In this document: positions 1-35,596 of the stretch, piece by piece
How positions within the stretch are numbered: position 1 is the stretch's first letter
How the letters are laid out: every line of letters starts with the position of its first letter
Source: Candidatus Undinarchaeales archaeon
GTDB taxonomy: Archaea; SpSt-1190; JASMDC01
Assembly (NCBI GenBank): GCA_030753015.1
Contig: JASMDC010000032.1
Coordinates: 1-40,238 of the forward strand
Length of the DNA stretch: 40,238 nt
Direction: 5' to 3'
Notes under the pieces: generated by a model
The model's database searches: none
Told to the model about the DNA's origin: nothing
Seen by the model: only the letters and a program-made list of their open reading frames with translations
Program-made: the position numbers and the translations under genes

Positions 1-3000
1 GGATGCCGTGGGCGTGAAGTCGCACTCTCCCTCGCACGAGGTGTAGTCGATGTTGTCACCGGCCTCGCAGTTCCCGCGGAGGATGTTACACTCGGGGTCA
101 TCGCCTTCATAGGAGAACGTCTTCGTGTCCTTGTCGTCCCCGCCATGGAGCAGCTCGATCTTCCTGAGCTTGGTCGTGCATTGGCTCGTGAACGAGAAGT
201 GGAGCGGGTCGCCCTTTGAAGGACAGATATTGAGGTCGAGGTCGATGGGCGGATCATAGATCGCGATCTGCGGTTTCTGGACCTTGATATAGAACTCGTC
301 GCATTCGCACTGTTTCACATCGAACGCGCAGGTCGTGGGATCACAGGTGATCTCGCCATCGTTATTCACGTCCCGTGCGATGAGCACCTTGTGCTGGCCT
401 CTTGCGGTATCGGCCGGTATTTGGAAAGAGCAGGTCTGCTCGGTACGGTACTGGAGACCGACGCCCACGCTACATGTAGCTAACGGATCGCCAGCTATCT
501 TGTCCAAGTAGACATATGCCTCTCCTGCAGTACAGGTGACGCGATACTTGAACGATATGGTCGCTCCTGGGCAGAGCTCGGTTATCTCGGGCGAGTCGGT
601 GAGGTCGAGCTGCGGATCGACGACGTCGAAGGACTCGTCCCCCATACCGAGGCGCCATCCATCGGCGGATTTTGCAGAGTTGGCAGATCCGAACTTGCAG
701 ATGCTGGACATACGTGAATCGGAGTACTGGTTGCACCCCCATCCTCTGTCTCCCTCTCCGCCGCAATCGGGGCAAGCGTAGTGGCCGCCGCTGTCGCACA
801 CACGGGTAACGGAGTCGACGTACACCGTGTAAACGCCCGGAGCATTGGGGGCAGGATAGTTCGCCGGTGTCTCGATGTCCGAAGTAGCAGTGCTCCACAC
901 CATGCACTTCGCGCCGCTGCTCTTCCTCAGGAAAGCGATGACTCCTGGATTGCTCACCTTCTTCGTGCAGGAGCCGTCCTCGCACAGCATGCATTCCGTG
1001 TTGGAGAGGTGGCGTGACGATTTGCCTCCCATGTCGATGATGGGTGAGCGATGCATATCGCAGACAGGGTTGGTCCCGGCCTCAGGGATGTCACCGCACC
1101 GTGAGATGCGAGCGTACGTGCTGAAGTAGTGCTGGGTTCCGCCGTGTCGCGAACCGTCGCTGCAGACAACGTTGTACGCTTGAAGGGCCGCCTTGAAGTA
1201 GATGATGTCCCCGGGACAGATCTGTCGTCCGACCTTGTCAGGATCGATGTCGAAGTTCATGGTCACCGTCCCCTTGACACCTGTCGACTGTGCAGCACCC
1301 CAGGTATGGCCACAAGTATTCATCGTACCGCAAACGGCAGCGATGTTCACCTTGCAGGTCCCTGTCTTGCATGAAATGCTCTCATCGTCCCCGGTCCCCT
1401 TTACACGAACAGCGAAGCCTTGGGAGCCCGTGGACGTCTTCGGATCAACGGACAACCGGCACCACGGATTGGCATCCATGTCGTCGAGGAACACACCTCC
1501 GGTCTCCTCGGCCGTCGGTCCCGGACAGGTACCCTGCTTTTTACCGCCCATATGAATATCGAACTCAGAGCCCTTGGGGTAGCACTTGCTGTCGACCTTT
1601 ACGTAGATAGATGCTGCAAGGCATGTATCTGTCGGGAACACGTAGAAGTCGATGTTCCTTCCGGAGACCGGGAGGTTCAGGGCAGGCGACGTCCTGTAGT
1701 ACTTACCCGCGCCGTCCCCTTCAGCGACGATATTGATCGAATCGCCATCGAAGTCAGACGGGATGAGGAACTCGACATAGCCGTTCTCATCGGGATTCTT
1801 GACGTTCCCGATCACAGTGTCGCCGTTGAGCATCTTGACATTGACCCGGTTACCCCTTGTAACCCCCTGGCCCCATTCATCAACGACGCGTACCTTGAAG
1901 GACACACCACGGCACCCGCTGTCCGGTGTCTCGGCAACCGTGATGTCGCTCTTGAGCTTGACGGTCTTATCAGCGATGGACGAGCCCGTCTTGAAGGCAA
2001 CCACCTTGAGCTCGCCGACGAAATACACCATGTCCATGACGGCTTCGAGCTCGGAGTCCCAGTTCAGGATTCCATTCTCGTTCGTAACGCCATAGCTCAT
2101 GACGCGCTCATTGCCCTCGTTGTTGAGGGCCCGGACCTCTACAGAGGCCTCTGGGACACCGACGCCACCAGCGGTCACTTCGAACACGAGCTTGCTCTTG
2201 GGGTGGATCTCTGACACCTCTTCACTGGAGATGTCAAGGACGCGAAGCTCAATGAGTGGCACGTCGACAGCTATGAACTTCTCCCATTGGTAGAAAGCGC
2301 CGAACTCATCAGTCGCGTTCGCGACTAGGCGATAGTTACCTTGATCTATGTTGTGGAGCTCACAGTGGAGGGACGGATCACGTGACCAGCACTGGTGTAT
2401 CACAGCGCCCTCAATGTTGTGGAGGGCCATGTGCGTCTCCACGAGCTCGTCCCCCTCGGGGTCCTCCCATGTGAGGTCGATATCGAACTTGGTGAGCATA
2501 TCGCCCCCTGCTTGAGGGATCTGTTTCATGTGCTCTTCTTCGTTGCCCGCATCGATGATCTTGGGTGGATTGTTCTCGATCATCAACCGGACACCAGTAC
2601 TGTCCCACTGGTCCTCACCTGAGTCGATGAAGATGCCACAGCCTTCGATGGGAGTGCCATACGGATCGAACCTGAAGTAATGGTAATCGTGAGTGAGCTC
2701 TATCTCCTCCACGATCTTCTGGTCGCCCATGAGCGGTTCACATGTGTTGAGTATCTCTTCATCACCCCTGAATAGGACCCAGATGTCACCAAGTTCCTCC
2801 TTGCAGTCGAGGTTCTGGGTGTAGTTGTTGCTCTGGCAGAGGGCGACGGTGTAAGCGACGGGGTACTCACAGTTCGTGGAGGCATAGTACCACACTTCAG
2901 CCTTGTGGTTTCGGTACTTGGTGGTATTGAACATGACCCTGACTTTCTTGGGATTGCCCGAGGGATCGTGGTGCTGGGGGTCGTGGGTGATGCAAGCTTC

Positions 3001-3252
3001 GTTCTTGGTATAGCGTTTCCATGTACACGGATCCTCGGGTTCCCCTGGTTCAAGGGAACAAGCAGCATCGATTACGGCTCCAGTGATGTTGTTATCATCG
3101 GGATCGTTCTCATTGAGAAGGATGTAGGTACTTTTCTCCCGAATACCCGGTTCATCGCCGGCCGCAACGGCGTCGAATGTCGCCAATACGAACGTAACGA
3201 CCGCAAATACCATTAAAAATCTAGTAATATCTCTATTTTTCACTCTAGCCAA
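1..3252 (-). CDS. Giant Cys-rich secreted/surface protein with multiple Ig-like modules (partial, >=1,084 aa, C-terminus lies beyond the window start)
   Basis: Manual translation of the minus frame (codons ending at positions 3,6,...) shows no stop from 3252 to 1. It begins (TTG)ARVKNRDITRFLMVFAVVTFVLATFDAVAAGDEPG, which is signal peptide-like. A GGGGTGG SD-like motif precedes TTG 3252; alternative starts are GTG 3243 and ATG 3213. Absent from the ORF track because the window contains no stop codon for it. Confidence 0.88.
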   Translation of the reverse strand, partial: MARVKNRDITRFLMVFAVVTFVLATFDAVAAGDEPGIREKSTYILLNENDPDDNNITGAVIDAACSLEPGEPEDPCTWKRYTKNEACITHDPQHHDPSGNPKKVRVMFNTTKYRNHKAEVWYYASTNCEYPVAYTVALCQSNNYTQNLDCKEELGDIWVLFRGDEEILNTCEPLMGDQKIVEEIELTHDYHYFRFDPYGTPIEGCGIFIDSGEDQWDSTGVRLMIENNPPKIIDAGNEEEHMKQIPQAGGDMLTKFDIDLTWEDPEGDELVETHMALHNIEGAVIHQCWSRDPSLHCELHNIDQGNYRLVANATDEFGAFYQWEKFIAVDVPLIELRVLDISSEEVSEIHPKSKLVFEVTAGGVGVPEASVEVRALNNEGNERVMSYGVTNENGILNWDSELEAVMDMVYFVGELKVVAFKTGSSIADKTVKLKSDITVAETPDSGCRGVSFKVRVVDEWGQGVTRGNRVNVKMLNGDTVIGNVKNPDENGYVEFLIPSDFDGDSINIVAEGDGAGKYYRTSPALNLPVSGRNIDFYVFPTDTCLAASIYVKVDSKCYPKGSEFDIHMGGKKQGTCPGPTAEETGGVFLDDMDANPWCRLSVDPKTSTGSQGFAVRVKGTGDDESISCKTGTCKVNIAAVCGTMNTCGHTWGAAQSTGVKGTVTMNFDIDPDKVGRQICPGDIIYFKAALQAYNVVCSDGSRHGGTQHYFSTYARISRCGDIPEAGTNPVCDMHRSPIIDMGGKSSRHLSNTECMLCEDGSCTKKVSNPGVIAFLRKSSGAKCMVWSTATSDIETPANYPAPNAPGVYTVYVDSVTRVCDSGGHYACPDCGGEGDRGWGCNQYSDSRMSSICKFGSANSAKSADGWRLGMGDESFDVVDPQLDLTDSPEITELCPGATISFKYRVTCTAGEAYVYLDKIAGDPLATCSVGVGLQYRTEQTCSFQIPADTARGQHKVLIARDVNNDGEITCDPTTCAFDVKQCECDEFYIKVQKPQIAIYDPPIDLDLNICPSKGDPLHFSFTSQCTTKLRKIELLHGGDDKDTKTFSYEGDDPECNILRGNCEAGDNIDYTSCEGECDFTPTAS

Positions 3253-3280
3253 CAATACCACCCCCGAAGATTGGACTTCT

Positions 3281-3333: not shown

Positions 3334-5205
3334 ATGCCATTACAGCGGCGCCTTATCACGATTTTATTCGTGGTTTTTTGTCTTTCGTTCGCTAATTCTC
3401 CAAACTTCATCCGCGGCGAGATAGATGGAAGGATGGACAGGACGTCCTATGCTGCTGGTGATACGGCCATTATGAAAGTAGGTATCATGAACAAAGGTTC
3501 CGTACCGGTCGTGGACGGCTACCTGACCTTCATGCTCACCAGAGGGAACGACACTCCCGTCTATCCGAATTATGTCATTGACGAGAACGTGGTCGCTGAA
3601 AAGGTCGCCTATGAGATAAACATCCGACCTATCGACACGATCGAAGTCGAGACCACGTTCGATATCCCAGTGAATATCCCACCGGGAGAATACAGGATGG
3701 ATACATACTTCACAACTCCGAGAAATCCGATTTCAGGTCTTCCCTTCATCTACTTCACTCCGAAACCCATGATGATCCGATGTGGTGAGATCACGATCTG
3801 TCCAACGTTCAACATCACGAACGAAGGCACGTGGAAGGACCTGCGGATCGATCGGGAATCGATGCTCGTTGCCGGGATGCCCGGGCAGACCGGTCGGGTC
3901 GACCGAATGCCTGAGGAGGGCAAGACCGTATTGCCGCTCATAGTCCTCCGTGAGTCGGGTCTCGATCCCCGCACATGGGCGTGGGGCATCGGGAACGTGT
4001 TCGGTGTCAACGAGTGGCGTTTCACACCCAAGGTTGGTTCTGAACAGCCCGTTTCTTTCATGCTCGAGAACCGCGGGCCCACGGACACTACGAACGTATC
4101 GGTCACCGTCGAAGCCTATACATGGGACGACACTAAGCCGGAGTCCGGCCTGACTCCTGAGATCCATTCACGTCCCAAGACGAACAAAACGTATTATGTG
4201 GGCCCTATCAGGATAGGCGAGAAGGTCTGGGCTAACTCGACATTCATGCTCCCGGACCTCTCCACTGCTTACTCCATACTCATCACCGTGAAGGACGAGA
4301 ACGAGACCCTCACCATTTATCGGAGCCGCGTCGATGTATGGGGCGTCGGCAGCCGGATAACGAGCATCAAGCCCTCGAATTACAGGTATGAGTCCGGCGA
4401 TGTGGTCAACATCACAACAATGATCCTGTCAGCATCGGACGGTGTCAACAAGGGAGAGAATCTCTTCCTCAGTATAGAGATCAACGATCCTAAGGGCAAG
4501 GTCGGCTTCTTCGTCCATCCGGAGATGACCATAACAGCGGACGAGGCGTTCAGTTTGATCACGACCAGCATCCCTGCGCCACGCCGGCTGCGTAACTTCA
4601 CCATCCACGCGAACCTACGATCAGGGCCAAAGATCATCGATGACGTATTTATCCACATCGACAAGGACAAATTCCCGGCCAAGCTGGTCAGTGTCAATGT
4701 CACGACCATCAAGAATGGGAAGAATACAAGGGATTTCATGCCCGGGGACAAGATGAGAGTGAATATCGAGCTCATTGATGAGGACGGCGATCCAAAGGAC
4801 GGAACGATCGATGCGAAGCTCATCTTCTCGAGCGAGACGGACGACGAACAGCAGGAGGAGCTCATCGCGTTCGGTAGAAAGATAGATGGGACGTTTACCT
4901 CCGACCTATTGGTGCCACCATCCTGGCTCGGTATGCAGATCACTCTCTTCGTCAAGGAGCGGGAGACAAAGCTCACCGGTTATACCTCCATCTTCATGAA
5001 CGAGTGGAAGCCCCCACCCAAGCCATCAGGTGATGAGGACGAGGTGGATGTGACGATCGAACCAACTGTCGACATCGTCCCCATCATACCCACTGATCCG
5101 AAGGTGTACTATTTCTTCGGTGGCGCGGCCATCCTGGGCATCATACTCTTCGTCGTCATCTTTGCCCTCCCGCCAAAGAAGAAGGTCATCAAGGGCGTCG
5201 AGTGA
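3334..5205 (+). CDS. Membrane-anchored surface protein with tandem Ig/MG2-like beta-sandwich domains
   Basis: N-terminal signal peptide. Three 'D/N-x-x-Y/F-x-x-G-D-x-V' module starts (DRTSYAAGDTA, NYRYESGDVV, TRDFMPGDKM). C-terminal TM helix followed by PPKKK. GGTGA SD upstream. Confidence 0.85.
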   Translation: MPLQRRLITILFVVFCLSFANSPNFIRGEIDGRMDRTSYAAGDTAIMKVGIMNKGSVPVVDGYLTFMLTRGNDTPVYPNYVIDENVVAEKVAYEINIRPIDTIEVETTFDIPVNIPPGEYRMDTYFTTPRNPISGLPFIYFTPKPMMIRCGEITICPTFNITNEGTWKDLRIDRESMLVAGMPGQTGRVDRMPEEGKTVLPLIVLRESGLDPRTWAWGIGNVFGVNEWRFTPKVGSEQPVSFMLENRGPTDTTNVSVTVEAYTWDDTKPESGLTPEIHSRPKTNKTYYVGPIRIGEKVWANSTFMLPDLSTAYSILITVKDENETLTIYRSRVDVWGVGSRITSIKPSNYRYESGDVVNITTMILSASDGVNKGENLFLSIEINDPKGKVGFFVHPEMTITADEAFSLITTSIPAPRRLRNFTIHANLRSGPKIIDDVFIHIDKDKFPAKLVSVNVTTIKNGKNTRDFMPGDKMRVNIELIDEDGDPKDGTIDAKLIFSSETDDEQQEELIAFGRKIDGTFTSDLLVPPSWLGMQITLFVKERETKLTGYTSIFMNEWKPPPKPSGDEDEVDVTIEPTVDIVPIIPTDPKVYYFFGGAAILGIILFVVIFALPPKKKVIKGVE

Positions 5206-5217
5206 GCAGGGACGGAT

Positions 5218-8200
5218 ATGGGGTCGTTCGGACGAACCCTCGCGGTGGTCGTGGTCCTTGCGAGCATTATCGTCCTGCAAGTAAACGCCTTCGAGACCGA
5301 TCCTCCGTACCGTGAGATACTTCGTGGATTAGCAGCTTCGAAGAGCGATGATGACCTATGTGGACCACCTGACGCTTGGAGCTGCAACATGGGCTATTTC
5401 CAGGCGCGGATGATATCGGCTTACGCGGCTCTCTACCAACAGACCGGGAACACGACGCATCTTGTGTGGATGCGCAACTTCGTTGACACGAAATCCTCTG
5501 GCACTACTGGATGCGGACCTCCAGACGATTGGCAATCTGCAGAGAAGGACCATAGTTTCGTCATGGCGGCCTACGCGCATGCTCTCGAGGTGGAGGGTGA
5601 CGCTGCACGTCGTACACAGTATTCCGGATACCTTGAACAGTTCGCCTCACATGGATCACAGGATGCAGGGACTCCAGGCCCTCATCAGGTCGGTAACGAC
5701 CACAGCGCCATGGTGATAGGCTACCTCCGTGCTTTCGGCCAGACCGGGAGCCAGCCTATCAAGACCCACGTCGACAAGCTCGGTGTCAACGGGTGTTCAG
5801 GTTTGGGTCCGGACCCACAATCACCTGCTTTCTACAGGTGTGACCATACTCTCCTTCAGGCCGAGTATATCATCGGGTACGCGGACGGGTACGAGGCGAA
5901 GGGGGACGCGACCCACCTCAAGCGGCTCAACGCGCTCATGGCGGCCGGCTCGAACGACACGATCTACGGATGTAACGTGGTCGATGATTTCGACTGTGGG
6001 GACAACGAATATCAGGCGCTCATGATGCTCGCATCGGCCCGCGCCTATCAGGTAACACAGAATGTAAGCCATCGGGCAGCCTTGGACCATTTCGCCTCGA
6101 CTGCAGCCGCTGCAGGCGACTGTGGCCCCCCTGATGATTGGACGTGCATGGGTTCCTATTACCAGAACATCTATCTGATATCGTACGTGAACGCGTACCT
6201 CGTAACAGGGAACGATACCTATCTCGGTTGGGCGAACGATATCGCAGAGAAGCTCGTGACCTATTGTGACGGGTACAAGTGTGATACTAACCAGGGTATC
6301 GTCATCATGGCGGCCCAGGCGATCTCGACCCTCTATCCGGACATTAAGCCCATCAATGCAACGCTCAATGACACGGCGAGCGGTCGCGTCGTCCGTCTCG
6401 CTGCACGGGCAAGCGATCCAGCAAAGGGGACGTACCGTGCGCTGCACTATGCACGCCTTGACTATTCGGACATAGCTCACGGGCTCACCTCATGCACGTG
6501 CAAGGTTGACGGAGGGGCCGCATCGGACTGTCTTTCAGGGTCATTCGCATCGGTCGACCTACCACATCCTGGCAATGCGACGATGAACATCAACATCACA
6601 TGTACCAATGCTGCGGGACGCAAGACCTCACGTGTCAGTTCTGTGGTCGTGAAGGAGGATGTGCTCGATATATCCTTCGATAACGTAACCTCTCCCGTCA
6701 ATGAAGCGTTCAATGCCACTGGAACGGTGAACGATGTCGGTTCGCTCGCGTGCACGGCACATCTTGCTCACGAAGGTACTTCCAAGGAGAACACGATGCA
6801 TGCCGGGAGCGGAAAGTTCACCATCGAGGTCGCCCCCACCACGGACGGTGCGTATGAGCTGACCATCTCATGTTCCGCATCAGGGTTCACGACGACGAAC
6901 GTGTCGATCCCCTTCACGGTGGACATCACGCCTCCGGACTTCGACCTTTCTATCGTCGCCACCAACGACGATCCCTCCGTGAACATCACCATTTCTAACG
7001 CTGCGGACGCGACGTCAGCGGTTAATGCTTGCTGGACCACATTGAACGCCACCAACCTTGGTATCAAGGTCCCGTCACAGGGCACGGTCGCATGGAACGC
7101 CTCGGTAGCTTGGGGGTCTCACACGATCGTGGCAAAGTGCAACGACACGTCTGGGAACGTCGGAGCACGGAACTCCACGTTCTGGGTGAACAAGACCGAG
7201 GTCGCTCCAACCCCCACGCCGAACGTGACGGTCGTACCCAACGCCACTGCAACACCCACGCCGAACGCTACAGTGGTGCCCAACGCAACAGCGACTCCAG
7301 CACCCACCCCACCACCTGGCACCAAGACCATTATCATCAAAGCGGACCCGACATCGTTCTGTGGGTATACCGTCCACCTCAATGACATTGCACCAACGGG
7401 CGACACGGCCTTCCTCGAAGTATTGGAACCGGACGGCGCCACACACGTGTTCCTGGTCAACTATACGTCCGTGCAGTCCGGTATAGAGCCCAAGTCCCTT
7501 GAACTGGGTAACTTCTCGATCACTGTGTATCGGGACTGCGTAAACACGGACGCGACCGCGGAGGTCTATCTATCGATGGATGGAGGATGCTCAACGCCCA
7601 CGCCGTCAGCATCACCCACGCCAACTCCCGAGGCAACAAGCACAGCAACACCTTCACCCACTCCAGAAACGAGCATGACCCCAATACCCATCACGGTCGC
7701 AACACCGGTACCGACAGCCACCCCGTTACCTACTCTCGAACCACCAGAACCTGAAGGGACACCGACCCCGACGCCCGTTCCCGACCTGTCCACGTCGCCT
7801 ACGCCCGAGCCCACGATGCGGACGGAGGTCGTAGAACTCGAACTCCATCTTACTCCCACTCCCGCCCCCATACCCGAACGGTACGAAGAACTTGTCTTTC
7901 AGCTCAGCACAGTGGAGCGTGAGAAGCTCGATGCCAAGGGGAGGGCTATCATAGAGATGGCCCAAGAGGCTCTGGATGAAGCACGACAGTTCGAGGCCGA
8001 GGGCGATATCCAGATGGCACGGATAAGATATGGGCGTGCAGAAGTCCTGATCGAAGGTCTAAAGGACAGCCCGGAGGATGATTGGTCCAACCTCGGTTAT
8101 CTCCTTCTGTTCATCTGCCTCCTTACGATGGTGGGTATCGGTCTCCTCTACAAGTCCACGATAAATACCATTGAGACCGAGGGGGATGCGTACGAGTACA

Positions 8201-8550
8201 GCTCGTATTACGCTAACAGTACCGGCTCACCGTTCGTGTGGACCGAGCGTGGTTGGGAGATGGCAGAAGAGGGCGGGGAGCAGACTGCTGAAGCGACCGT
8301 CGTGAGCGAGGATGCGGCCGGACAGGAGCAATCAGTTCAGTCGACGGACCAGACAACTGATGTGGCCACGGAGGCGGTCGTAGCGACCGATGCCGGGTCA
8401 CCTTATGGTACATCCACCTACGACTCATATTACGCTGCACAGTACGGCTACTACTATGCGTACCGTGACACGGGCGAGGTCCAGGCCACTGCTGAAGCGG
8501 ACCAGGAAAACGGTGACCAGACGCCCGCGGAGCAATCCCAACAAATATAA
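5218..8550 (+). CDS. Large membrane-anchored glycoprotein A: helical-hairpin repeat head, Ig domains, Pro/Thr stalk, helical bundle, TM, acidic Tyr-rich tail
   Basis: Signal peptide; about 7 repeats of C-G-P-P-x-x-W-x-C...Q/H-x3-(I/M)-x-(A/G)Y...Y-x-x-TG; Ig-like 'VDITPP' ends; many N-x-S/T sequons; PT-rich linkers; TM LGYLLLFICLLTMVGIGLLY. Confidence 0.88.
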   Translation: MGSFGRTLAVVVVLASIIVLQVNAFETDPPYREILRGLAASKSDDDLCGPPDAWSCNMGYFQARMISAYAALYQQTGNTTHLVWMRNFVDTKSSGTTGCGPPDDWQSAEKDHSFVMAAYAHALEVEGDAARRTQYSGYLEQFASHGSQDAGTPGPHQVGNDHSAMVIGYLRAFGQTGSQPIKTHVDKLGVNGCSGLGPDPQSPAFYRCDHTLLQAEYIIGYADGYEAKGDATHLKRLNALMAAGSNDTIYGCNVVDDFDCGDNEYQALMMLASARAYQVTQNVSHRAALDHFASTAAAAGDCGPPDDWTCMGSYYQNIYLISYVNAYLVTGNDTYLGWANDIAEKLVTYCDGYKCDTNQGIVIMAAQAISTLYPDIKPINATLNDTASGRVVRLAARASDPAKGTYRALHYARLDYSDIAHGLTSCTCKVDGGAASDCLSGSFASVDLPHPGNATMNINITCTNAAGRKTSRVSSVVVKEDVLDISFDNVTSPVNEAFNATGTVNDVGSLACTAHLAHEGTSKENTMHAGSGKFTIEVAPTTDGAYELTISCSASGFTTTNVSIPFTVDITPPDFDLSIVATNDDPSVNITISNAADATSAVNACWTTLNATNLGIKVPSQGTVAWNASVAWGSHTIVAKCNDTSGNVGARNSTFWVNKTEVAPTPTPNVTVVPNATATPTPNATVVPNATATPAPTPPPGTKTIIIKADPTSFCGYTVHLNDIAPTGDTAFLEVLEPDGATHVFLVNYTSVQSGIEPKSLELGNFSITVYRDCVNTDATAEVYLSMDGGCSTPTPSASPTPTPEATSTATPSPTPETSMTPIPITVATPVPTATPLPTLEPPEPEGTPTPTPVPDLSTSPTPEPTMRTEVVELELHLTPTPAPIPERYEELVFQLSTVEREKLDAKGRAIIEMAQEALDEARQFEAEGDIQMARIRYGRAEVLIEGLKDSPEDDWSNLGYLLLFICLLTMVGIGLLYKSTINTIETEGDAYEYSSYYANSTGSPFVWTERGWEMAEEGGEQTAEATVVSEDAAGQEQSVQSTDQTTDVATEAVVATDAGSPYGTSTYDSYYAAQYGYYYAYRDTGEVQATAEADQENGDQTPAEQSQQI
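7210..7300 (+). repeat. Imperfect ~42-bp coding tandem repeat (TPTPNVTVVPNATA / TPTPNATVVPNATA)
   Basis: A 14-aa unit occurs twice in the stalk of glycoprotein A, and each unit has two N-x-T sequons. Confidence 0.6.
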
Positions 8551-8573
8551 ATGCCCCAGACCAATATGTGGCT

Positions 8574-11500
8574 ATGAAGAGGGTGTGGTATCTTCTTGTT
8601 CTAGCGATTCTGTTCGTGGTTGTAATACCTCTGGCCACCTCAGGACAGGAGGTGACACACGATTATAAGCCATTCATGGAGCGGGTGGCTGCTTCTCGTA
8701 CAGGATCAAACTCATGCGGTCCGCCGTCCTCTTGGGACTGTAGTCACGGGAACGTCCAAGCGGACCTCATCATGGCACACTCGAGCCTTTACAGGCAGAC
8801 GGGTGAGCAGAAGTACCTCGATTGGATGCACGCTTACGCCGACCATAGTTCGACCAATGAGCAGACGGGTGCAGGCCCCGGGGACTACCGTAGCGGGGAG
8901 AAGGACCATGGGTGGTACATGGTCGGATACGCTATGGCCTACCTCGCTGAACCCGACTCCAGTAAGAAATCGACCTACAGCTCCTACCTCGATAATTTCG
9001 CGAACCAGGGTTCGATCGACGCTGGTCCGGTCAGCGGTGGCCAGGTAGGGAACGACCACGTGGCCATGGTCATCGGCTATTCCATGGCCTATGGTGCTGC
9101 AAAGAGCTCGACGGTCAAGGGGCACTTCAGTGGATTCGGCACACAGGAATCGGGCATCGGGTCCCGTACCCATGGTGAGTACATGCTAGGGTACGCTGAA
9201 GCGTATCTCGCTTCGGGTGAGAGCGGGTACAAGTCGACCCTCATCAGCCTGGCGAACACACGGCCCGCCGATCCCAACATCGGGTGCACGACCGGCCATG
9301 ACTGCCACAACGATGAATGGCAGGACCTCATGATCCTCGGTCTCGCCAAGACCTATGAGATAACCGGGACCGCCACTTACAAGGACGAGATGGTAGCGTA
9401 CGCCAACGTCAGGCCGCCCGATTCCTGCGGACCTCCCGACCATTGGGACTGCGGCGACAGCACCCTCCATGCGAACTCTATATTCGCCTATTCCAAGGTA
9501 TACCTCACAACGAACGACCAGACCTATCTCGGCTACCTCGACCAGCTGGGCGACCGTGCCATTAACGGCGCCCCGTGCGAGGTCGTGGGAGATGAGGTTC
9601 ATTGCTCGAGCGGTACGGGCCGGTTACTCATGGGCCTCCAGATCCTTGCCACCATCTACCCATACTTCGGTGAGATCTCGGTATCTCCGGAGACCGCCTC
9701 GACGGACCTGACCCTCTCGGTATCGGTACCTGTCGGTGACCTACCCAAGGTAGAGATCACCGCAGGATACTTCGGTCGATATGACTTCTCCGGCTGGCAG
9801 CAAGGGGTCGCATCCTGTGACTGCTGGCTCGGCGAAACGAGTTATGCAAGCTGCCTGAGCGGTTCTTCCGCAGGATTCCAGGTGGCCACGCCACAGGCCG
9901 GGAACCACACGATCCGAATCGCCTGTACGAACAAGGCGGGTTATACGAACACGCTCACATCCTGGGTCGTCGTATACCCCGATGGGATCCACATCGAACA
10001 TGACGACCTATCCTATGTGAACACGACGACCCATCAGGTCGAGCTCAACTACACCTCTGCCTACGAGGTGGACTGCTCGGCGACATTGATCGGTCCTTCC
10101 GGCACGACGAACCCCCCTATCTCCGGGGACGGAAAGAACGTCGGTACAGCCGCCATAGTCCTCACGCTCTCGCCCGACGGTGAGTACTCGCTCGACGTCG
10201 CCTGCCAGAACAGCCAAGGGAAACAGGCGTCCTTCAACCTCGCGTTCACCGCCGATATTGTCGCACCCGCGACCACGATCGCAGTATTGGAGGAGTACAA
10301 CGTCCAGCCCATCACGGTCGGCGCCACTCAGATAGGTGATGCAACGGCGGGGATCGATACCTGCCGAATCTTCGTTGACGGGGACCTGAGTGGTACGAAG
10401 GCGCCAACTGACGGTTCCGTATCTTGGGATCTCGACCTACCGGAGGCCAGCTACCATTTCAAGATATGCTGCTACGATAAGGCCGGGAACGAGGGATGCA
10501 CGGAGAAGATCTCACAGATCGACCTCACACCTTCGGCAACGCCCCACTCGACCTCTATCGGATTCACGACAGCCACACCATCTGCGACACCTCCGCCTTC
10601 AGGGACACCCTATCCGACCCTCACCCCTCCGCCCGACGTGGTCGTCACGGCCACGCCGGCACCGACACCCGCAGGCCCCTGCGAGCCACCGAGCGAGGAT
10701 GCCATCATCACAAGATGGAACGAGACACATGGAAGAGATTTAACCGATCTCGTCACCGCCAACAAGGCGGCGACGGTGACCCTCCCGTCACGTGATGCAG
10801 AAGGATTCGCATCCGCCCGGGAAGAGGCTGCAGCGCTCATGCGCGTAATGAACGACGAGTACCTCAAGCATTCGTGTGATGTGGGTGTTTTCACCGTTGT
10901 GTTCACAGATGCGGAGACCTCGTACACATCGACACGTGGAGCGGTCGAGTATCTCGAAGCAGGATACATAACCGATGAGCAGTTCATCAACGCCATGCAG
11001 GAGGCGGGCCCAACACCCTTGCCCCCTGAGGAGGTGACCACACCCACCCCGCCACCGGGCGTATCGATCGCACCCACACCGACGATCGGTGTAGTGATAC
11101 CTACAGAGGGTCCGAGCCCTACACCACGAGAAACGGGCGGACTTAGCGGGCTTTCGACACCGACACCAGAACCGTCCGCGACAGCAGAGCCAACAAAGGT
11201 ACCCACATCAGCACCGACCGATACACCGACAGCCACCGCGAAGCCAGGACCCACGGAGCAGGGGAGCTATGTGGCGACCATAACCCCCGGTGCAACAGCA
11301 GGGCCTACGAGCAAGACTGGTGGCGACTCGACCCCACCTCCAACACCCACGGTAGAGCCCATCAAGATCGACGAGGTGGATGTCGACTTCGATCCTGAGA
11401 TGGATGATGTTCGAAAGGAGGATACTGCTAAGGACAGCGTCGCCGAGGCGCTCGAATCCATCGCAGCGACCCGTGGTGAAGGTCTCGATACTAACGAGGC

Positions 11501-12008
11501 CGAGGAATACATCAAACTCGCGGAGGATCGTATCGCCTCAGGGCAGTACGAGGAAGCCGTGAAGTATGCATGGGTGGCCAAGCGTCGTGCGGACGAGGTG
11601 GCCGGCAGGATCTCAGAGCCCTGGAGCTATGTCAACGAGAAACAGCGCTCATCGTTCCCTTTCCAGATCGACTCGACGCTCGCGGCCCTTCTTGGCGGTG
11701 CGCTGATAGTGATGATCGCGGGTCTTGCGTTCTTCGTGAGAGCACAGGCCGGTGGTGTCGACAGCGAGCTCATGGATTACATAGACGGACGACGTGAAGA
11801 CGGGTTCGATGACGATGAGATCGTTAGCGCTCTTCTCGATGCGGGCTATGATAAGGAGGAGATATACGCTGCTTTCGGTCTCGATGTGCCCATAGAGATC
11901 GGAGAGGAGGCCGAGGTGGTCACAGAGGAAGAAGGGGCCGAGGTCACGGAGAGCGTAGAAGAAGTGGATAGCGAGGACTATGTCAGTGGCGAGCCAAAAG
12001 AAGAGTGA
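8574..12008 (+). CDS. Large membrane-anchored glycoprotein B, paralog of 5218-8550
   Basis: Same architecture as A, with shared motifs (CGPPxxWxC, EKDH, QVGNDHxAMVIGY, YDxS...SCxC...CLSGS, CTNxAG, DIxxP, CxDxxGN). ATG 8574 lies about 25 nt after AAATATAAAT (8543-8552); GTG 8568 is the alternative start. The cytoplasmic tail carries a small helical motif, LMDYI...GFDDDEIVSALLDAGYDKEEI. Confidence 0.88.
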   Translation: MKRVWYLLVLAILFVVVIPLATSGQEVTHDYKPFMERVAASRTGSNSCGPPSSWDCSHGNVQADLIMAHSSLYRQTGEQKYLDWMHAYADHSSTNEQTGAGPGDYRSGEKDHGWYMVGYAMAYLAEPDSSKKSTYSSYLDNFANQGSIDAGPVSGGQVGNDHVAMVIGYSMAYGAAKSSTVKGHFSGFGTQESGIGSRTHGEYMLGYAEAYLASGESGYKSTLISLANTRPADPNIGCTTGHDCHNDEWQDLMILGLAKTYEITGTATYKDEMVAYANVRPPDSCGPPDHWDCGDSTLHANSIFAYSKVYLTTNDQTYLGYLDQLGDRAINGAPCEVVGDEVHCSSGTGRLLMGLQILATIYPYFGEISVSPETASTDLTLSVSVPVGDLPKVEITAGYFGRYDFSGWQQGVASCDCWLGETSYASCLSGSSAGFQVATPQAGNHTIRIACTNKAGYTNTLTSWVVVYPDGIHIEHDDLSYVNTTTHQVELNYTSAYEVDCSATLIGPSGTTNPPISGDGKNVGTAAIVLTLSPDGEYSLDVACQNSQGKQASFNLAFTADIVAPATTIAVLEEYNVQPITVGATQIGDATAGIDTCRIFVDGDLSGTKAPTDGSVSWDLDLPEASYHFKICCYDKAGNEGCTEKISQIDLTPSATPHSTSIGFTTATPSATPPPSGTPYPTLTPPPDVVVTATPAPTPAGPCEPPSEDAIITRWNETHGRDLTDLVTANKAATVTLPSRDAEGFASAREEAAALMRVMNDEYLKHSCDVGVFTVVFTDAETSYTSTRGAVEYLEAGYITDEQFINAMQEAGPTPLPPEEVTTPTPPPGVSIAPTPTIGVVIPTEGPSPTPRETGGLSGLSTPTPEPSATAEPTKVPTSAPTDTPTATAKPGPTEQGSYVATITPGATAGPTSKTGGDSTPPPTPTVEPIKIDEVDVDFDPEMDDVRKEDTAKDSVAEALESIAATRGEGLDTNEAEEYIKLAEDRIASGQYEEAVKYAWVAKRRADEVAGRISEPWSYVNEKQRSSFPFQIDSTLAALLGGALIVMIAGLAFFVRAQAGGVDSELMDYIDGRREDGFDDDEIVSALLDAGYDKEEIYAAFGLDVPIEIGEEAEVVTEEEGAEVTESVEEVDSEDYVSGEPKEE

Positions 12009-13248: not shown

Positions 13249-14184
13249 GTGACCACTCGCGCTGCTATCGGTCTCGCGATCGTCATTATCAGTATCGGGT
13301 GCATGATCATGCTCGCCCCAGGGCCCGAGGAGCCCACCGGCCCCGCACCCACACAACCACCCGGACCATCACCCACTCCCTACATCGATCCCTTCACCCT
13401 CGCGATCACCGAGTGTACTCTCCTTGGCGGAGAAGCGGCGGACCGGTGCCTTCTCAACCGTACCATGGTGATCGGCAACGCATCCATGTGCGGCCTTATC
13501 AACACGACCCTGGTCCATGACTGGTGCGAGCGTGACATGGCGAAGCTACGCCACGAACCTGAGAGGTGTGATGCCGTCGAGACCGAACTCGTCCGAAATG
13601 AGTGCTTCGTAGAGCTTTCCGACCTCACCAAGGATCCGGCCCTTTGTGCCAACATCACGGGCGGCGGTTACAAGGACGTCTGCCTCCAGCGAGCGGTGAC
13701 CATTACCCAGAACGTCTCTCTCTGTAGTGAGATCGTTCGCCAGCGTATGCGTGACGGGTGCTGGTACGACGTGGCGCTTAACACCAAGGAGCCCGGCCTC
13801 TGTGACAATATCAGCGATCCTGCGATCAAGGACGGGTGTATCAATTATGTGGCGACCGTCAGCCTCAACGCCACCCGATGCGTGGGTATCCAGAACGCGA
13901 CCTACAAGGACACCTGTTATGAGTCGCTCGCAAAGCTAACGAAGGTCGGAACGGTCTGTCTCGACATCGGGGATGGCGTGCAGCGTGAGGGATGTCTCGT
14001 GGAAGTCGGGACCAAGACGAACGACGCCGATACGTGCCTTCATGTGACGGACCAGGGGACAAGGGAACGGTGCGTCTACACCGTTGCTCGTGCAATCGGC
14101 GACGGGAGCCTGTGCGAGCACATCACCGATCCTGAGCTTAAAGTTACCTGCACGAGCAGACTTGGCTCCGGGACCGGATCGTGA
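13249..14184 (+). CDS. N-terminally anchored Cys-repeat protein (10 x ~26-aa C-x11-C-x13 units)
   Basis: N-terminal hydrophobic helix and Pro-rich linker, then repeats such as CGLINTTLVHDWC, CDNISDPAIKDGC and CEHITDPELKVTC. Confidence 0.85.
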   Translation: MTTRAAIGLAIVIISIGCMIMLAPGPEEPTGPAPTQPPGPSPTPYIDPFTLAITECTLLGGEAADRCLLNRTMVIGNASMCGLINTTLVHDWCERDMAKLRHEPERCDAVETELVRNECFVELSDLTKDPALCANITGGGYKDVCLQRAVTITQNVSLCSEIVRQRMRDGCWYDVALNTKEPGLCDNISDPAIKDGCINYVATVSLNATRCVGIQNATYKDTCYESLAKLTKVGTVCLDIGDGVQREGCLVEVGTKTNDADTCLHVTDQGTRERCVYTVARAIGDGSLCEHITDPELKVTCTSRLGSGTGS

Positions 14185-22146: not shown

Positions 22147-23109
22147 TCACGGGATGATGCGTCCGCCACCGTACCGCAACCACTGCTCGGCGAGGATGAG
22201 GAGCACGGCCATACCCACGAACCAGGGAGCCGTCGAGACATCCTCATTCTCATGTTCTATCTTCTCTGAGAGCGTCTCGTAGATTTGTTCCAGGGTTGTC
22301 ACATCGATGGCGCGAAAGTACTCGCCCCCTGTGGTTTTGGCAATGTGTCGCAATGTCTCCTCGTCCAGACGTGCGTATTGCGCCCGACCGAACCAGTCGT
22401 ACCCGAGCACGACCGGCTTCACGCTGCCTACTCCAACGGTGTAAACCTGCACACCCTCGCGCTTGGCGAAGGCTGCGGCTTCTGCGGGCGGGATGACGCC
22501 TGCATTGTTCTCCCCGTCTGAGAGTAGTATGACCACTTTGCGACGGTTCGGGATAGATGTGATCATGTCCACGGCAAGCGACAGGCCGTCCCCGATAGCC
22601 GTCCGACCTTCCCGGGGCCTTATCGCATCGAGCTTCTGGATCGTCCGGTCCTTGAGCCTGGTGAGGTAGGATCCAGCCGTTGCCCCCTCAGAGAACACGA
22701 TGATGCCGCAATGGTCCACCGGTTTTAGTGATTCTATGAGCACACGAGCGCTCTGCTTGGCCGCCTCCAGACGGGAGGGCTCAAAATCAGTTGCTTGCAT
22801 GCTCCCCGAAACGTCAATGACAAGTACGACGTTGACACCCTTGTGGGTAGCCGTCCACGGGATGTGCAGGTCGGCCAGCGACAGGAAGAGGCATGTAAGG
22901 GCAAGAGCGGACATTAAGAACCCTGCGCTCCTCCGCCACGCGAGCTCGCGGCCACCCGCAGCCTCCCGGACGACCTTGAGACGTGAGAATATGAGGGCGG
23001 CCCGACGCTTGTGCCCCTCGGCCCGGCGGGCCATGTACACGAGCACTAAGAGTACGACGATGCCAGCTGTAAGCCATTCTGGATTGAGAAAGAACCACTC
23101 GTCGACCAT
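22147..23109 (-). CDS. BatA-like VWA domain membrane protein
   Basis: N-terminal F.NP.WL plus TM segments; MIDAS DVSGSM...TAIGD...LSDGE; LDEETL..IA..TGG.YF; C-terminal TM. Confidence 0.92.
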   Translation of the reverse strand: MVDEWFFLNPEWLTAGIVVLLVLVYMARRAEGHKRRAALIFSRLKVVREAAGGRELAWRRSAGFLMSALALTCLFLSLADLHIPWTATHKGVNVVLVIDVSGSMQATDFEPSRLEAAKQSARVLIESLKPVDHCGIIVFSEGATAGSYLTRLKDRTIQKLDAIRPREGRTAIGDGLSLAVDMITSIPNRRKVVILLSDGENNAGVIPPAEAAAFAKREGVQVYTVGVGSVKPVVLGYDWFGRAQYARLDEETLRHIAKTTGGEYFRAIDVTTLEQIYETLSEKIEHENEDVSTAPWFVGMAVLLILAEQWLRYGGGRIIP

Positions 23110-24080
23110 CAGTGACGCCTCCTCTCACGTCGCGCAAAGAACTTACGCAGCGGCTCTTCGAAAGGTTCTTCGGTGGATACCTCGACGAGCTGACCATTCG
23201 AGCGACCGACTACCGACACGAGACCTTGTACCTCTTCATCAGCGATATGTGAGAATGCTTCCCTGACCTCGCGATCACTGGTGTCCACGAGCATGTGCTC
23301 ACCCGTCTCTGCGTCCTCGAGCTCCATGAGCCCAGCATCGGGCAGCTCTACTTCGCGCGGGTCCCGGACGCGTACGGCGACGAGGTCGTGACGTGATCCG
23401 AGCACCCTGAGCGGACGCACGAGGCCTTCTTGTTCGGGAAAATCCGAGATGACGAACACGATACCACGCTTCTTTGCCACCTTCGCTAGGAATGCAAGAG
23501 CACCCGGAACATCGGTCCGAGCACCACGAGGACGGTGAGCCACCAGTTCGCGCACGCAACGCAACACATGCTTCCGTCCTCCCCTGGGGGGAAGGTACGT
23601 CACCACCGTGTCGGTGAAGAGGATGAGCCCGACCCGGTCATTGTTACGCATCGCACAGAACATCAACGATGCGGCGATCTCCCGGGCAGCAGCTCCCTTC
23701 TCACGGCCCGAGCCGAAGGCGAATGATCCTGAGACATCTACCACGAGATGTACGTCGATGTTCCGCTCCTCGATATACTCTTTGACGTACGGTGCGTTCA
23801 TGCGCGCGGTCACGTTCCAGTCGATGGTCCGTACGTCGTCACCAGGCACGTACTCCCGCACCTCGGCGAACTCGATTCCCCGGCCCTTGAACGATGAGTG
23901 GAAAGCGCCTTGGAGAAGCCCGGTCACCTTGCCACGGACCCTCAGCTCGAGCCGCTTGACCCGCCGGACTATCTCAGCTGGGGTTTGATGCTCTTCTTCC
24001 TCCAGCTCATCTTCATCTGGGAACGGTCTTATCAGTGAGAGGAACCGGGAAAGAACACCGCCGTCTTCGTTACCCGTCAA
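23109..24080 (-). CDS. DUF58 family protein (MoxR-associated, VWA-like)
   Basis: GRGIEFAEVREYVPGDDVRTIDWNVTAR, VDVSGS, DRVGL, ISDF. Confidence 0.93.
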   Translation of the reverse strand: MTGNEDGGVLSRFLSLIRPFPDEDELEEEEHQTPAEIVRRVKRLELRVRGKVTGLLQGAFHSSFKGRGIEFAEVREYVPGDDVRTIDWNVTARMNAPYVKEYIEERNIDVHLVVDVSGSFAFGSGREKGAAAREIAASLMFCAMRNNDRVGLILFTDTVVTYLPPRGGRKHVLRCVRELVAHRPRGARTDVPGALAFLAKVAKKRGIVFVISDFPEQEGLVRPLRVLGSRHDLVAVRVRDPREVELPDAGLMELEDAETGEHMLVDTSDREVREAFSHIADEEVQGLVSVVGRSNGQLVEVSTEEPFEEPLRKFFARRERRRH

Positions 24081-24091
24081 CGGGCCATCAC

Positions 24092-25081
24092 CTACGGGAT
24101 CTCCACTACGTTGAGGACCTGCTGAACGATATCGTCGGTGGTCACGTCCTCGGCCTCTGCTTCGTATGTGAGGATTATGCGATGCCGTAGGACCGACATG
24201 GCCACGGCCTGGATATCCTCCGGGATGACATATCCTCTGCCGTTGAGGAGGGCGTTCGCCCGAGCACCCATAACAAGCCAGATGCTCGCCCGTGGGCTTG
24301 CACCGAACTCTATGAGCCCCTCCATGTCAAGCCCGTATGACGCGGGATCTCTCGTGGCATCCACGAGCTGTGTCGAATAGTCCACAACGCTCTCCTCGAC
24401 GTGGAGCTTTCGCACTGACAGTTGCATCTTCGTCACCGCATCGGCGTCGAGCACCGGCGAGGCGGACGCTTCTGTATCCCGGGTGAATCGGTCCACTATC
24501 GCCCGTTCTTCTTCGATCGATGGGTAGTCGACGAGGACCTTTAGCATGAAACGGTCAACCTGGGCCTCTGGAAGACGGTAGGTGCCCTCGGTCTCGAGCG
24601 GATTCTGTGTGGCGAGCACTAGGAAAGGCTTTGGAAGGGGGAACGTCTCCCCCCCGATCGAGACCTGTCGCTCTTGCATTGCCTCGAGCAGAGCGGACTG
24701 CACCTTGGGCGGTGCACGGTTGATCTCGTCCGCCAGCACGAGGTTAGCGAACACAGGACCCTTGCGGGTAGTGAATGTGGCCTTCCTCTGGTCGTATATG
24801 GTCGTACCGACGATGTCAGCGGGAAGAAGGTCTGGTGTGAACTGTATGCGCACGAACGAGGCGCGAAGTGTGTCTGCCAGTGAATGCACCATGAGCGTCT
24901 TGGCCAGACCGGGCACGCCCTCGAGGAGGACATGTCCATTGGCCAATAGCGCTATGAGGAGCTTGTGGAGCACTTTATCCTGCCCCACGATGACGTTGCC
25001 AATTTCTCCGAGGACCTTGTCGATAGATTTCGTGTGCTTCTCGCTCTGTTTGTTTAGCTTCTGGATAGTCTTGTCCATCAT
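24092..25081 (-). CDS. moxR: MoxR-family AAA+ ATPase
   Basis: GHVLLEGVPGLAKT, RIQFTPDLLPADI, LADEINRAPPKVQSALLEAMQE, ATQNP.E.EGTY.LPEAQ.DRF, GASPRAS. Confidence 0.95.
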   Translation of the reverse strand: MMDKTIQKLNKQSEKHTKSIDKVLGEIGNVIVGQDKVLHKLLIALLANGHVLLEGVPGLAKTLMVHSLADTLRASFVRIQFTPDLLPADIVGTTIYDQRKATFTTRKGPVFANLVLADEINRAPPKVQSALLEAMQERQVSIGGETFPLPKPFLVLATQNPLETEGTYRLPEAQVDRFMLKVLVDYPSIEEERAIVDRFTRDTEASASPVLDADAVTKMQLSVRKLHVEESVVDYSTQLVDATRDPASYGLDMEGLIEFGASPRASIWLVMGARANALLNGRGYVIPEDIQAVAMSVLRHRIILTYEAEAEDVTTDDIVQQVLNVVEIP

Positions 25082-26821: not shown

Positions 26822-26949
26822 TTTCATATCACCTTTCGTCAAATGGGCTGTGTTATGACCATGATGGTCTCGGCAATCACGGGAAGTGTCGGTTATTTCT
26901 CCCTCATGAACACCTTCTAGCCTTTACGGACCGCCTTTTTATCGTAGAA

Positions 26950-35092: not shown

Positions 35093-35182
35093 CGGGATCT
35101 CACCTAAAGGACCGTTCTGTGGATGACCATGGAAGGCTTCGGTGCGACTACCATGATCACTGTGATGCACAACCAGGAAACA

Positions 35183-35198
35183 CCTTAAAAAACTTTTG
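35183..35198 (-). promoter_or_regulatory. BRE-TATA promoter of acs copy 1
   Basis: Minus strand CAAAAGTTTTTTAAGG, 91 nt upstream of the ATG; mirrors the copy 2 promoter. Confidence 0.6.
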
Positions 35199-35333
35199 AT
35201 ATTGCGCCCATTACAGATATCATTGATAAGATTACTGGGCTTATTAATTAGTAATTGAAAACAATAGACGACGTTTCAATAGAAATTGATCTGTAGGCGG
35301 ACATCCTCTCGAACGTACCAGAGATGCTCTCGT

Positions 35334-35480
35334 CTACGCAATCGTACCGGGTCTCACGGATAGGTCGATGGTGAACGACCTGTACAGCTTCGCGTTCCAG
35401 GTGAGGACGCTCTCCCCATAATCTCGGGTCCCCGAGCATCTCCCCGTGAACTCAAAGGCACCATGGAGCACGAGGTCCAT
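35334..35480 (-). other. Possible 48-aa ORF or gene remnant between the acs copies
   Basis: MDLVLHGAFEFTGRCSGTRDYGESVLTWNAKLYRSFTIDLSVRPGTIA*, with host-like GC3 codons. The frame stays open a further ~18 codons upstream to a TAG. Confidence 0.25.
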
Positions 35481-35566
35481 GATCTCTTGAAAGGTATCTT
35501 TCGCGGGATCGGGGACCGGAACGTCCCGTCGCCACTAATTACGACGATACACCCTGAAAGATAGGC

Positions 35567-35596
35567 GGAAGGGCCCGGACTCACCCGAACCCTTCC
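35567..35596 (-). terminator. Hairpin downstream of acs copy 2
   Basis: Minus strand GGAAGGGUUCGG-GUGAGU-CCGGGCCCUUCC, a 12-bp stem with G-U pairs, about 20 nt after the stop. Confidence 0.6.

Follow-up and report, generated by a model that had tools for sequence, protein, structure and literature searches.

Alpha/alpha toroids are known mostly as enzymes whose helical hairpins have diverged past recognition. LanC-like domains are cytoplasmic seven-hairpin alpha/alpha toroids whose barrel mouth holds a Cys-Cys-His zinc site, and the GH47 class I alpha-1,2-mannosidases are (alpha/alpha)7 barrels of the secretory pathway or the cell exterior. GH76 alpha-1,6-mannanases carry an adjacent catalytic Asp-Asp pair. 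GH127 beta-L-arabinofuranosidases, as described for HypBA1, have a catalytic Cys nucleophile and a Cys3-Glu zinc site. In the prenyltransferase and squalene-cyclase 'QW' toroids, a recognizable sequence repeat links the helices. Here we describe two tandem genes, p1 and p2, in a 40,238-nt stretch of DNA from a Candidatus Undinarchaeales archaeon (contig JASMDC010000032.1), hereafter the window, whose positions are used throughout. Both encode surface proteins with an N-terminal head built of tandem 43-aa hairpins with Cys-bracketed loops, predicted to close into a ring. The tandem repeat is clear here, with up to 64% identity between the units of one paralog, and the heads are a natural case for how closed helical rings evolve out of one unit.

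The domain belongs to a known fold class, its hairpin is recognizably that of the six-hairpin superfamily, and it is no categorical novelty. Its novelty is in the way it combines a clear tandem repeat, paired-Cys loops, seven-hairpin closure and an extracellular, stalk-borne setting, found so far in a few uncultured archaea. p1 (5218–8550, 1110 aa) and p2 (8568 with a GTG start or 8574 with an ATG start, to 12008) are open reading frames (ORFs) on the + strand, as is the preceding p0, and all features of the three are given on that strand. In the ortholog P0005 the ATG is the start. The two proteins are paralogous and of equal architecture, with 28% identity across 902 aligned residues (E 3e-100) and 33% between the heads alone. 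The heads lie at 5287–6342 (p1, ~350 aa) and 8643–9662 (p2).

The Cys-loop hairpin repeat

A hidden Markov model (HMM) of the unit was trained on 101 units from relatives, with p1, p2 and their four orthologs excluded. It found six 43-aa units in p1 (10.4–49.1 bits) and five in p2 (6.4–48.1 bits), plus one in p2 at 3.3 bits. The top score over 200 shuffled heads was 5.0 bits. The repeat units claimed for both proteins in the original prediction are real by this measure, six in p1 and five to six in p2. The HMM gave no significant seventh unit (−2.6 bits in p1, none in p2). Its assignment is based on the last Cys loop, on the last inner helix in the structural models and on truncated seventh units in five relatives (P0006, the paralog on contig C84, P0008, P0014 and P0017).

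The consensus over 143 unit hits is DCGPPDDWDCGTGEDQGLMILAYAKAYEVTGNETYLDYAENLA. Cys is found at position 2 in all units (100%) and at position 10 in 94%; position 16 is Gln in 73% and His in 16%. Tyr at position 27 (76%), Thr at position 30 (75%) and Tyr at position 35 (64%) follow. This consensus bears out the earlier description of a C-x5-Q/H helix start and a Y-x-x-T-G-x3-Y-L hairpin. In P0006, the C84 paralog and P0008, whose seven units are regular, inter-unit identity averages 34–37%, with a maximum of 64%. We define the Cys-loop hairpin toroid family by this unit HMM and an alignment of heads (A3) as proteins with at least six tandem 43-aa units, C2, C10, Q/H16, the Y-x-x-T-G-x3-Y-L motif and an extracytoplasmic setting. 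Both p1 and p2 belong to it.

All of the loop motifs quoted in the original prediction are present. They are CGPPDAWSC, CNVVDDFDC and CGPPDDWTC at p1 residues 48, 252 and 302, and CGPPSSWDC, CTTGHDC and CGPPDHWDC at p2 residues 50, 240 and 287. Each protein has just two exact CGPPxxWxC loops; the rest are degenerate. In p1 a short N-terminal helix (5308–5334, residues 8–16 of the model) precedes unit 1 (5359–5484, 49.1 bits), which has the CGPPDAWSC loop and Gln at position 16. Unit 2 (5509–5646, 10.4 bits) begins with CGPPDDWQS at residue 99, which lacks the second Cys, and continues with EKDH, with His at position 16. Unit 3 (5686–5784, 13.7 bits) has no Cys loop and reads QVGNDH, again with His at position 16. 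A long C193-x14-C208 loop and Gln at position 16 mark unit 4 (5794–5940, 21.6 bits). Units 5 (5968–6096, 41.7 bits) and 6 (6118–6246, 44.1 bits) carry CNVVDDFDC and CGPPDDWTC, and the half unit 7 (6265–6330) consists of a CDGYKC loop at residue 350 and the last inner helix (model residues 333–347).

The p2 head has a similar layout. Unit 1 (8715–8840, 48.1 bits) has the CGPPSSWDC loop. Units 2 to 4 are without Cys: unit 2 (8871–9002, 6.4 bits) contains EKDH, unit 3 (9042–9140) contains QVGNDH and is aligned to p1 unit 3, its 3.3 bits being inside the shuffle range, and unit 4 (9159–9254, 16.1 bits) has His at position 16. CTTGHDC opens unit 5 (9282–9404, 27.3 bits), and unit 6 (9426–9551, 43.9 bits) has CGPPDHWDC and His at position 16. 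In the half unit 7 (9576–9656), CEVVGDEVHC (residue 337) is modelled as a beta-hairpin (model residues 312–321), followed by the last inner helix (residues 325–338).

EKDH and QVGNDHxAMVIGY had been singled out as conserved polar motifs that might line a central pocket. EKDH is indeed present in both paralogs (p1 109, p2 111), as is GNDH (p1 159, p2 161). When the units are put in register, however, both align to unit positions 13–16, where the consensus is x-E-D-Q. They do not stand out as separate catalytic motifs and are read as the unit's own inner-helix start with His replacing Gln, not as inserted active-site motifs. In the p1 model E109–H112 (head residues 86–89) form the first turn of inner helix 2. 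Position 16 reads Q H H Q Q Q in p1 units 1–6 and Q H H H Q H in p2 units 1–6; in p1 unit 7, outside the unit-register alignment, it was read by eye as Gln. Intact Cys pairs are lost in units 2–3 of p1 and 2–4 of p2; these units carry His in place of Gln, and Asp precedes His in units 2–3. D111-H112 and D161 (p1 numbering) are invariant across an eight-row alignment (A1) that includes the distant pair P0011 and P0012. Units 2–4 are desymmetrized in that pair as well as in p1 and p2, and could mark a specialized site.

Most units have an even number of Cys residues. In the 23 residues ahead of position 16 there are two in 102/135 units, four in 8/135 and none in 11/135, with odd numbers in 14/135. 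All Cys residues of the p2 head are paired by spacing, and both head models have beta-bridges inside the loops. The spacing suggests that the Cys loops are disulfide-stapled. Some units of P0006, P0007, P0009, P0010 and the paralog on contig C95 have two extra Cys just before the loop, in the four-Cys pattern C-x2-C-x-C-G-P-P-D-D-W/F-D-C. The extra pair may form a second disulfide or a small metal knuckle.

Predicted fold and kinship with known toroids

Both heads were modelled with AlphaFold2 from eight-row input alignments. The p1 model has a mean predicted local distance difference test score (pLDDT) of 72.4, a predicted template-modelling score (pTM) of 0.78 and 14 helices. The p2 model reaches 77.2 and 0.82; it too has 14 helices, and its last loop forms a beta-hairpin. 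In both models one N-terminal helix is followed by six inner/outer hairpins and a final inner helix, giving seven inner and seven outer helices. On these models both heads are read as closed (alpha/alpha)7 toroids. Ring closure probably depends on the N-terminal helix, which would serve as the outer-helix partner of unit 7. Two features fit a closed ring: relatives have truncated seventh units, and a helix stands before unit 1 in p1 and p2.

Structural comparison ranked seven-hairpin families at the top. In an exhaustive VIA search, 300–327 residues of these families aligned to both models, from model residue 1 to ~350 (paired Z values are for p1 and p2, respectively). The best matches were LanC-like proteins (NisC, MadC, the CuvL cyclase domain, LanCL1/2 and GCR2), with Z 19.5–22.5 over 300–313 residues at 3.4–4.6 Å: 8car (Z 21.1 and 22.5, 301 residues), 3t33 (20.2 and 21.1) and 8byk (19.5 and 21.3). 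GH47 mannosidases also matched over the whole domain, at Z 18.1–20.7 and 306–327 residues, the longest of all matches. These were 4ayo (20.3 and 20.7), 1hcu (19.1 and 20.5), 1fo2 (19.0 and 19.8) and 1dl2 (18.1 and 19.2). Six-hairpin families (GH76, AGE, GH88, GH105) stayed at Z of at most 18.9 over ~264–288 residues. A designed barrel with seven inner helices gave Z 17.0 and 16.2, OSC 15.3–15.4, and the thioester domains (TEDs) of A2M and TEP1 one value each, 14.6 and 13.9, respectively. A closed toroid rather than an open solenoid, as had been proposed, is thus what the models predict, with whole-domain Z of 19–22.5. In ring size the models depart from the (alpha/alpha)6 toroids named earlier: the predicted ring has seven hairpins, and its best structural matches are LanC-like proteins and GH47.

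The heads differ from each of these families in other respects. With seven hairpins in the predicted models, p1 and p2 share the ring size of both the LanC-like toroids and the GH47 (alpha/alpha)7 barrels. Unlike LanC-like domains they are extracellular, their Cys are paired and their internal sequence repeats are strong. GH47 domains are ~100 residues larger than the heads and have catalytic acids and a Ca site. GH76 enzymes and BT_3782 (4mu9) have the hairpin Q-G...L-Y-x-x-T-G-x-x-x-Y-L in common with the family, but GH76 is a six-hairpin barrel (269–287 residues at Z 15.6–18.1) without Cys loops, whereas the p1 and p2 models have 14 helices and do not fit a six-hairpin (alpha/alpha)6 ring. 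The QW toroids differ in the repeat itself. Neither p1 nor p2 has a Pfam match to those repeats, and their unit motif, W-x-C-x5-Q with a disulfide-type loop, has another order and content.

It is very improbable that the toroid prediction is wrong and that the heads form an open alpha-solenoid, or that the ring is an AlphaFold prior acting on a shallow alignment. Such an error would be in keeping with only eight sequences per alignment, mean pLDDT of 72–77 with several loops below 50, and Foldseek template-modelling scores of 0.40–0.55 among the 34 PDB matches at E ≤0.001 (AGE-type epimerases, GH76, LanCL1 and GCR2). Yet the two models, made independently, both have 14 helices and share their best matches, with pTM of 0.78 and 0.82, and seven units with a truncated seventh across relatives, together with the helix ahead of unit 1, suit a closed ring.

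The fold matches also raise the question of chemistry. The heads might add thiols to peptides in a zinc-dependent, LanC-like reaction, or bind targets covalently as TEDs do, given that LanC-like domains are the best fold matches, that the A2M and TEP1 TEDs are matched at Z 14.6 and 13.9, and that p0 has weak MG2 and bMG6-type matches. The head Cys, however, lie in short-range disulfide-type pairs, the loops have CGPP in place of CGEQ, LanC enzymes are cytoplasmic and the head is extracellular, and at the sequence level LanCL2 is reached only at E 0.011, with no LANC_like (PF05147) row on p1 or p2 at E up to 1. We regard such chemistry as most unlikely. The A2M/complement thioester domain was rejected as a candidate identity for the heads: the loops read CGPP, CNVV and CTTG, the thioester motif (CGEQ in A2M) is absent, and TED chains score only Z 13.9–14.6.

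Curated sequence families gave partial matches. Neither head reached a Pfam or NCBIfam cut-off, NCBIfam had nothing relevant, and the earlier statement that the repeat has no named family stands. The GH127 catalytic model (PF07944, Beta-AFase-like_GH127_cat, formerly DUF1680) scored 18.0 bits on p1 and 14.3 bits on p2, below its gathering score of 24.9, and the GH88 model scored 15.3 bits against a cut-off of 26.6. Eight of 17 relatives rose above the GH127_cat cut-off with partial matches, the best stretches covering at most 146 of 376 profile positions. One source names the relative P0007 'glycoside hydrolase family 127 protein'. This automatic name rests on partial matches, and the family defines a domain that has been unannotated or mis-annotated. 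GH76 (PF03663) gave no row on p1 or p2 at E up to 1, its best relative being P0010 (25.6 bits against a gathering score of 25.9). GH47 (PF01532) likewise gave no row on p1 or p2, with P0007 as best relative (19 bits against 22.9).

A single-sequence search with the p1 head found 0 matches among PDB sequences at E up to 10. A3, a profile of eight family heads, had its best sequence-level matches in GH76 mannanases and 4mu9 (E 4.6e-8 to 1e-4), followed by GH127 (E 1.4e-3) and LanCL2; C5-epimerase was also among the partial similarities. Each A3 match spans between one and three hairpins of the form Q-G...L-Y-x-x-T-G-x-x-x-Y-L. Alignments to GH76 are at the level of a single hairpin and ambiguous in register. 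Those to GH127 structures cover chain residues 142–220 only, which we take to lie outside the catalytic Cys/Zn region, and the Cys of the p1 and p2 heads are in short-range pairs. In the ESM Atlas the best score (0.90) went to unnamed Bacteroidota clusters of ~200 aa and toroid families scored 0.86–0.87, all below the level of reliable recognition. On these matches the unit is best read as a regularized and amplified version of the six-hairpin-superfamily hairpin (GH76, GH127, GH88), with the ring size of seven-hairpin members. The original prediction had likewise taken the YxxTGxxxYL hairpin as typical of (alpha/alpha)6 toroids, and the sub-threshold GH127 and GH88 scores and the GH76 profile matches agree.

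Candidate functions of the heads

Several features place the head outside the cell. p1 is a type-I membrane surface protein in which a hydrophobic signal peptide (5218–5286) is followed by the toroid head, an Ig-like region, Pro/Thr stalks, a helical juxtamembrane part, a transmembrane (TM) helix (8083–8163, aa 956–982) and a Tyr/Gln/acid-rich tail. The Ig-like region, scanned alone (aa 386–661), scored 30 bits with Big_13 (cut-off 27), with its best stretch at 6670–6924; the equivalent region of p2 scored 24 bits, under the cut-off. The main Pro/Thr/Ser-rich stalk is at 7588–7872 and a shorter one at 7198–7317. p2 also has a hydrophobic N-terminal signal sequence, Pro/Thr/Ser-rich stretches and one C-terminal TM helix (11667–11759, aa 1034–1064). 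N-x-S/T sequons number 24 in p1 and 4 in p2. The Ig plus Pro/Thr stalk described earlier is therefore present, as is the membrane anchor. The signal peptide, the C-terminal TM helix, the p1 sequons and the Big_13 match suggest extracellular display of the head.

Constraint in p1 is strongest in the head, where 18% of positions vary among six orthologs; the share is 29–39% in each other region (signal peptide, Ig region, stalks, helical part, TM helix, tail). The x positions of loop 1 (aa 52 and 53) are among the ten most variable head sites.

We propose that p1 and p2 are paralogous type-I membrane glycoproteins in which the ~350 residues after the signal peptide would fold into a closed (alpha/alpha)7 ring of seven tandem 43-aa units. 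A unit would open with a nine-residue loop bracketed by Cys (consensus CGPPDDWDC) and run on into an inner helix, whose first turn holds Gln or His; a turn with Y-x-x-T-G would then lead to the outer helix. Because the inner-helix N-termini of alpha/alpha toroids lie around the axis on the long-loop face, the Gln/His residues likely form a ring at the toroid mouth flanked by the Cys loops. The Cys loops would then lie on one face of the ring together with the first turns of all seven inner helices, and that face may bind the ligand. Loss of the staple and His for Gln in consecutive units would break the sevenfold symmetry and yield a His/Asp patch. The head would stand at the tip of an Ig-like and Pro/Thr stalk of roughly 600 residues.

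The favoured function, to which we give an even chance, is an extracellular ligand-recognition module whose ligand is probably a glycan, possibly bound with the help of a metal. We think the head more probably non-catalytic than a glycosidase. Relatives with seven near-equal units lack an obvious asymmetric active site, and the ancestral role would therefore have been binding or structural. For this marine archaeal lineage the heads are candidate recognition modules, and discovery of a ligand would make them an archaeal surface receptor of a new type.

Several points weigh against this assignment. Similarity to glycosidases leaves catalysis possible, and the conserved Asp-His pairs could be catalytic. 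The p1 head has 11 Cys, an odd number, with C99 unpaired by spacing. The alignments behind the models are shallow, four of their eight rows being 88–92% identical. The lowest-confidence stretches (head residues 127–140 and 171–182 in p1, 128–137 and 166–171 in p2) coincide with loops around the GNDH of unit 3, where pLDDT is below 50. Finally, 0/27 ORFs near three other paralogs in the same genome matched a glycosyltransferase at E 1e-5. The glycan gene context is therefore not general, and gene context makes a weak link to glycans.

A rather unlikely alternative is that the heads are enzymes of the six-hairpin superfamily (glycoside hydrolases, lyases or epimerases) that trim or remodel glycans on the cell's own or a neighbouring surface, with the Asp-His pairs of units 2–3 as catalytic residues. 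Partial Pfam and PDB-profile similarity to GH76, GH127, GH88 and C5-epimerase, the GH127 name of P0007, the invariance of D111-H112 and D161, and the strong constraint on the head all fit such enzymes, as do glycosylation genes nearby, both in the window and beside relatives on two metagenome loci (L020 and L015). However, the GH127_cat scores of p1 and p2 fall short of the gathering score and the matches cover generic hairpins only. EKDH and GNDH fall on the regular x-E-D-Q columns of the unit, no asymmetric site is seen in relatives whose seven units are nearly equal, and the three other paralogs lack a glycan-gene context.

We consider it less probable still that the heads are structural or adhesive caps without a small-ligand pocket, forming a canopy, an S-layer-like element or a protein contact module, possibly as a p1-p2 heteromer. 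A rigid, repeat-built and probably disulfide-stapled ring on a long stalk would suit a cap, and a tandem pair with two tail types recurs in P0011/P0012 while one genome holds five paralogs. A cap would explain neither why the head is conserved more than the stalk nor why His replaces Gln in the same units across paralogs. A more speculative form of the recognition model, which we think improbable in its full extent, combines binding with symmetry. The head would be a near-sevenfold-symmetric 'crown' with a sugar or cation site in each stapled aromatic/Asp loop (C-G-P-P-D-D-W-D-C), an archaeal multivalent lectin or adhesin without a described precedent. p1 and p2 would have turned part of their ring into a His/Asp metal site and would signal as a heteromer through their different tails, and the family would illustrate the origin of alpha/alpha toroid enzymes by amplification of a single hairpin.

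Distribution, tails and neighbouring genes

The family is small in the databases searched. An exhaustive HMMER scan of 1,835,955,588 cluster representatives returned 17 proteins at E ≤0.001, of which 7 were at ≤1e-10 and 2 at ≤1e-30. The A3 profile added 12 short forms of 356–419 aa with an N-terminal anchor. In a longer length class it found five proteins, four of them p1 and its orthologs and one a new long form. A word-index search with p1 found four proteins, all p1 orthologs, a scan of genome contigs found one locus from the same genus, and a degenerate DNA pattern for CGPPDDWDC found six stretches in metagenome contigs. A signal sequence or an anchor was present in all members examined, and a TM helix in the long forms. 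No description of the repeat family was found in a search of literature listings on archaeal surface proteins and toroid families.

Names come only from metagenome-assembled genomes (MAGs) of uncultured archaea, with named members in Aenigmarchaeota and 'Methanopyri' MAGs. A 90%-identical ortholog is on a MAG contig titled 'Candidatus Undinarchaeota archaeon', and a member from the same genus is filed under 'Methanopyri archaeon'; the source labels of close relatives thus disagree. Five domain genes are present in the genome to which the window belongs (3.85 Mb, 117 contigs): p1, p2 and one each on contigs C62 (P0006), C84 and C95. Among 41 genomes of relatives the domain was matched in two, this genome and that of its genus-mate. 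These two are also large. The first is 98.9% complete with 5% contamination, the second measures 3.6 Mb, and 15/15 other searched genomes of the same class are 0.6–1.2 Mb. DNA of the window was found in marine and seawater runs from 13 studies.

The distant relatives P0011 and P0012 are encoded on one 17,464-nt contig and mirror p1 and p2. One has a p1-like Tyr/Gln-rich tail and the other a p2-type tail motif. Their heads are 75% identical, as against 33% for p1 and p2. The heads may have evolved in concert, or the pair may stem from an independent duplication with an exchange of tails. The p2 motif is a cytoplasmic segment of ~40 aa (11763–11882) directly after the TM helix, of the form Y-I-x6-G-F-x3-E-I-x3-L-x2-A-G-Y-x2-E-E-I-Y-A-A-F-G. 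It is shared with P0012 (45% identity over 47 aa, E 4e-13), which apparently has two copies. UBA_2 matched the p2 motif weakly, below cut-off (E 0.018).

p1 and p2 are preceded by p0 (3334–5205), which ends 13 nt before p1. It encodes a beta-sandwich-like surface protein of 623 aa with a signal peptide, a C-terminal TM anchor and sub-threshold Pfam matches to MG2 and Arrestin_C. p0, p1, p2 and the next genes run in one direction with gaps of 13–18 nt, and p0 is probably co-transcribed with p1. PMT_2, GT2, DegT and NAD-epimerase genes are found downstream at 14.2–18.6 kb of the window, 2–6 kb from p2, and genes of these four families also surround a distant relative of low GC content on L020/L015. 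The thermosome gene at 25166–26842 marks the window as archaeal DNA.

Contigs from two metatranscriptome runs matched p0, p2 and the start of an HD gene with zero differing letters; those on p0 come from RNA libraries of two studies. Those on the p2 head include 8707–9064, 8995–9145 and 9321–9471. No contig from the two runs fell on p1, a gap that proves nothing. The RNA-library contigs are of low depth and may include carried-over DNA, and are no proof of transcription.

The other paralogs and short members have varied neighbours. The C84 paralog is adjoined by genes of Mch and formylmethanofuran-dehydrogenase type (MCH, Amidohydro_3, GXGXG, Molybdopterin). On metagenome stretches L020 (1–11765), L015 and L016, short N-anchored members of 376–383 aa sit among sulfatase, polysaccharide deacetylase, GT2, PMT_2, DegT and epimerase genes. 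The L015 and L016 members are also near homologous large multi-pass membrane proteins that have no Pfam match and share an N-terminal H-Y-Y-S-D-K-x-P-G.

Elsewhere in the window, the + strand at 13249–14184 encodes a 311-aa N-terminally anchored protein with 21 Cys, 8 N-x-S/T sequons and no Pfam match at E up to 1. In this protein 20/21 Cys strictly alternate at a spacing of 11–14 residues, corresponding to ~ten 26-aa repeats. An open-ended ORF of more than 1087 aa on the − strand (1–3261) encodes 46 Cys and a hydrophobic N-terminal segment; no Pfam family matched it at E 1e-5. The − strand also carries a trio of MoxR-type AAA ATPase, DUF58 and VWA genes at 22147–25081 and two tandem genes of acetyl-CoA-synthetase type at 33104–37628.

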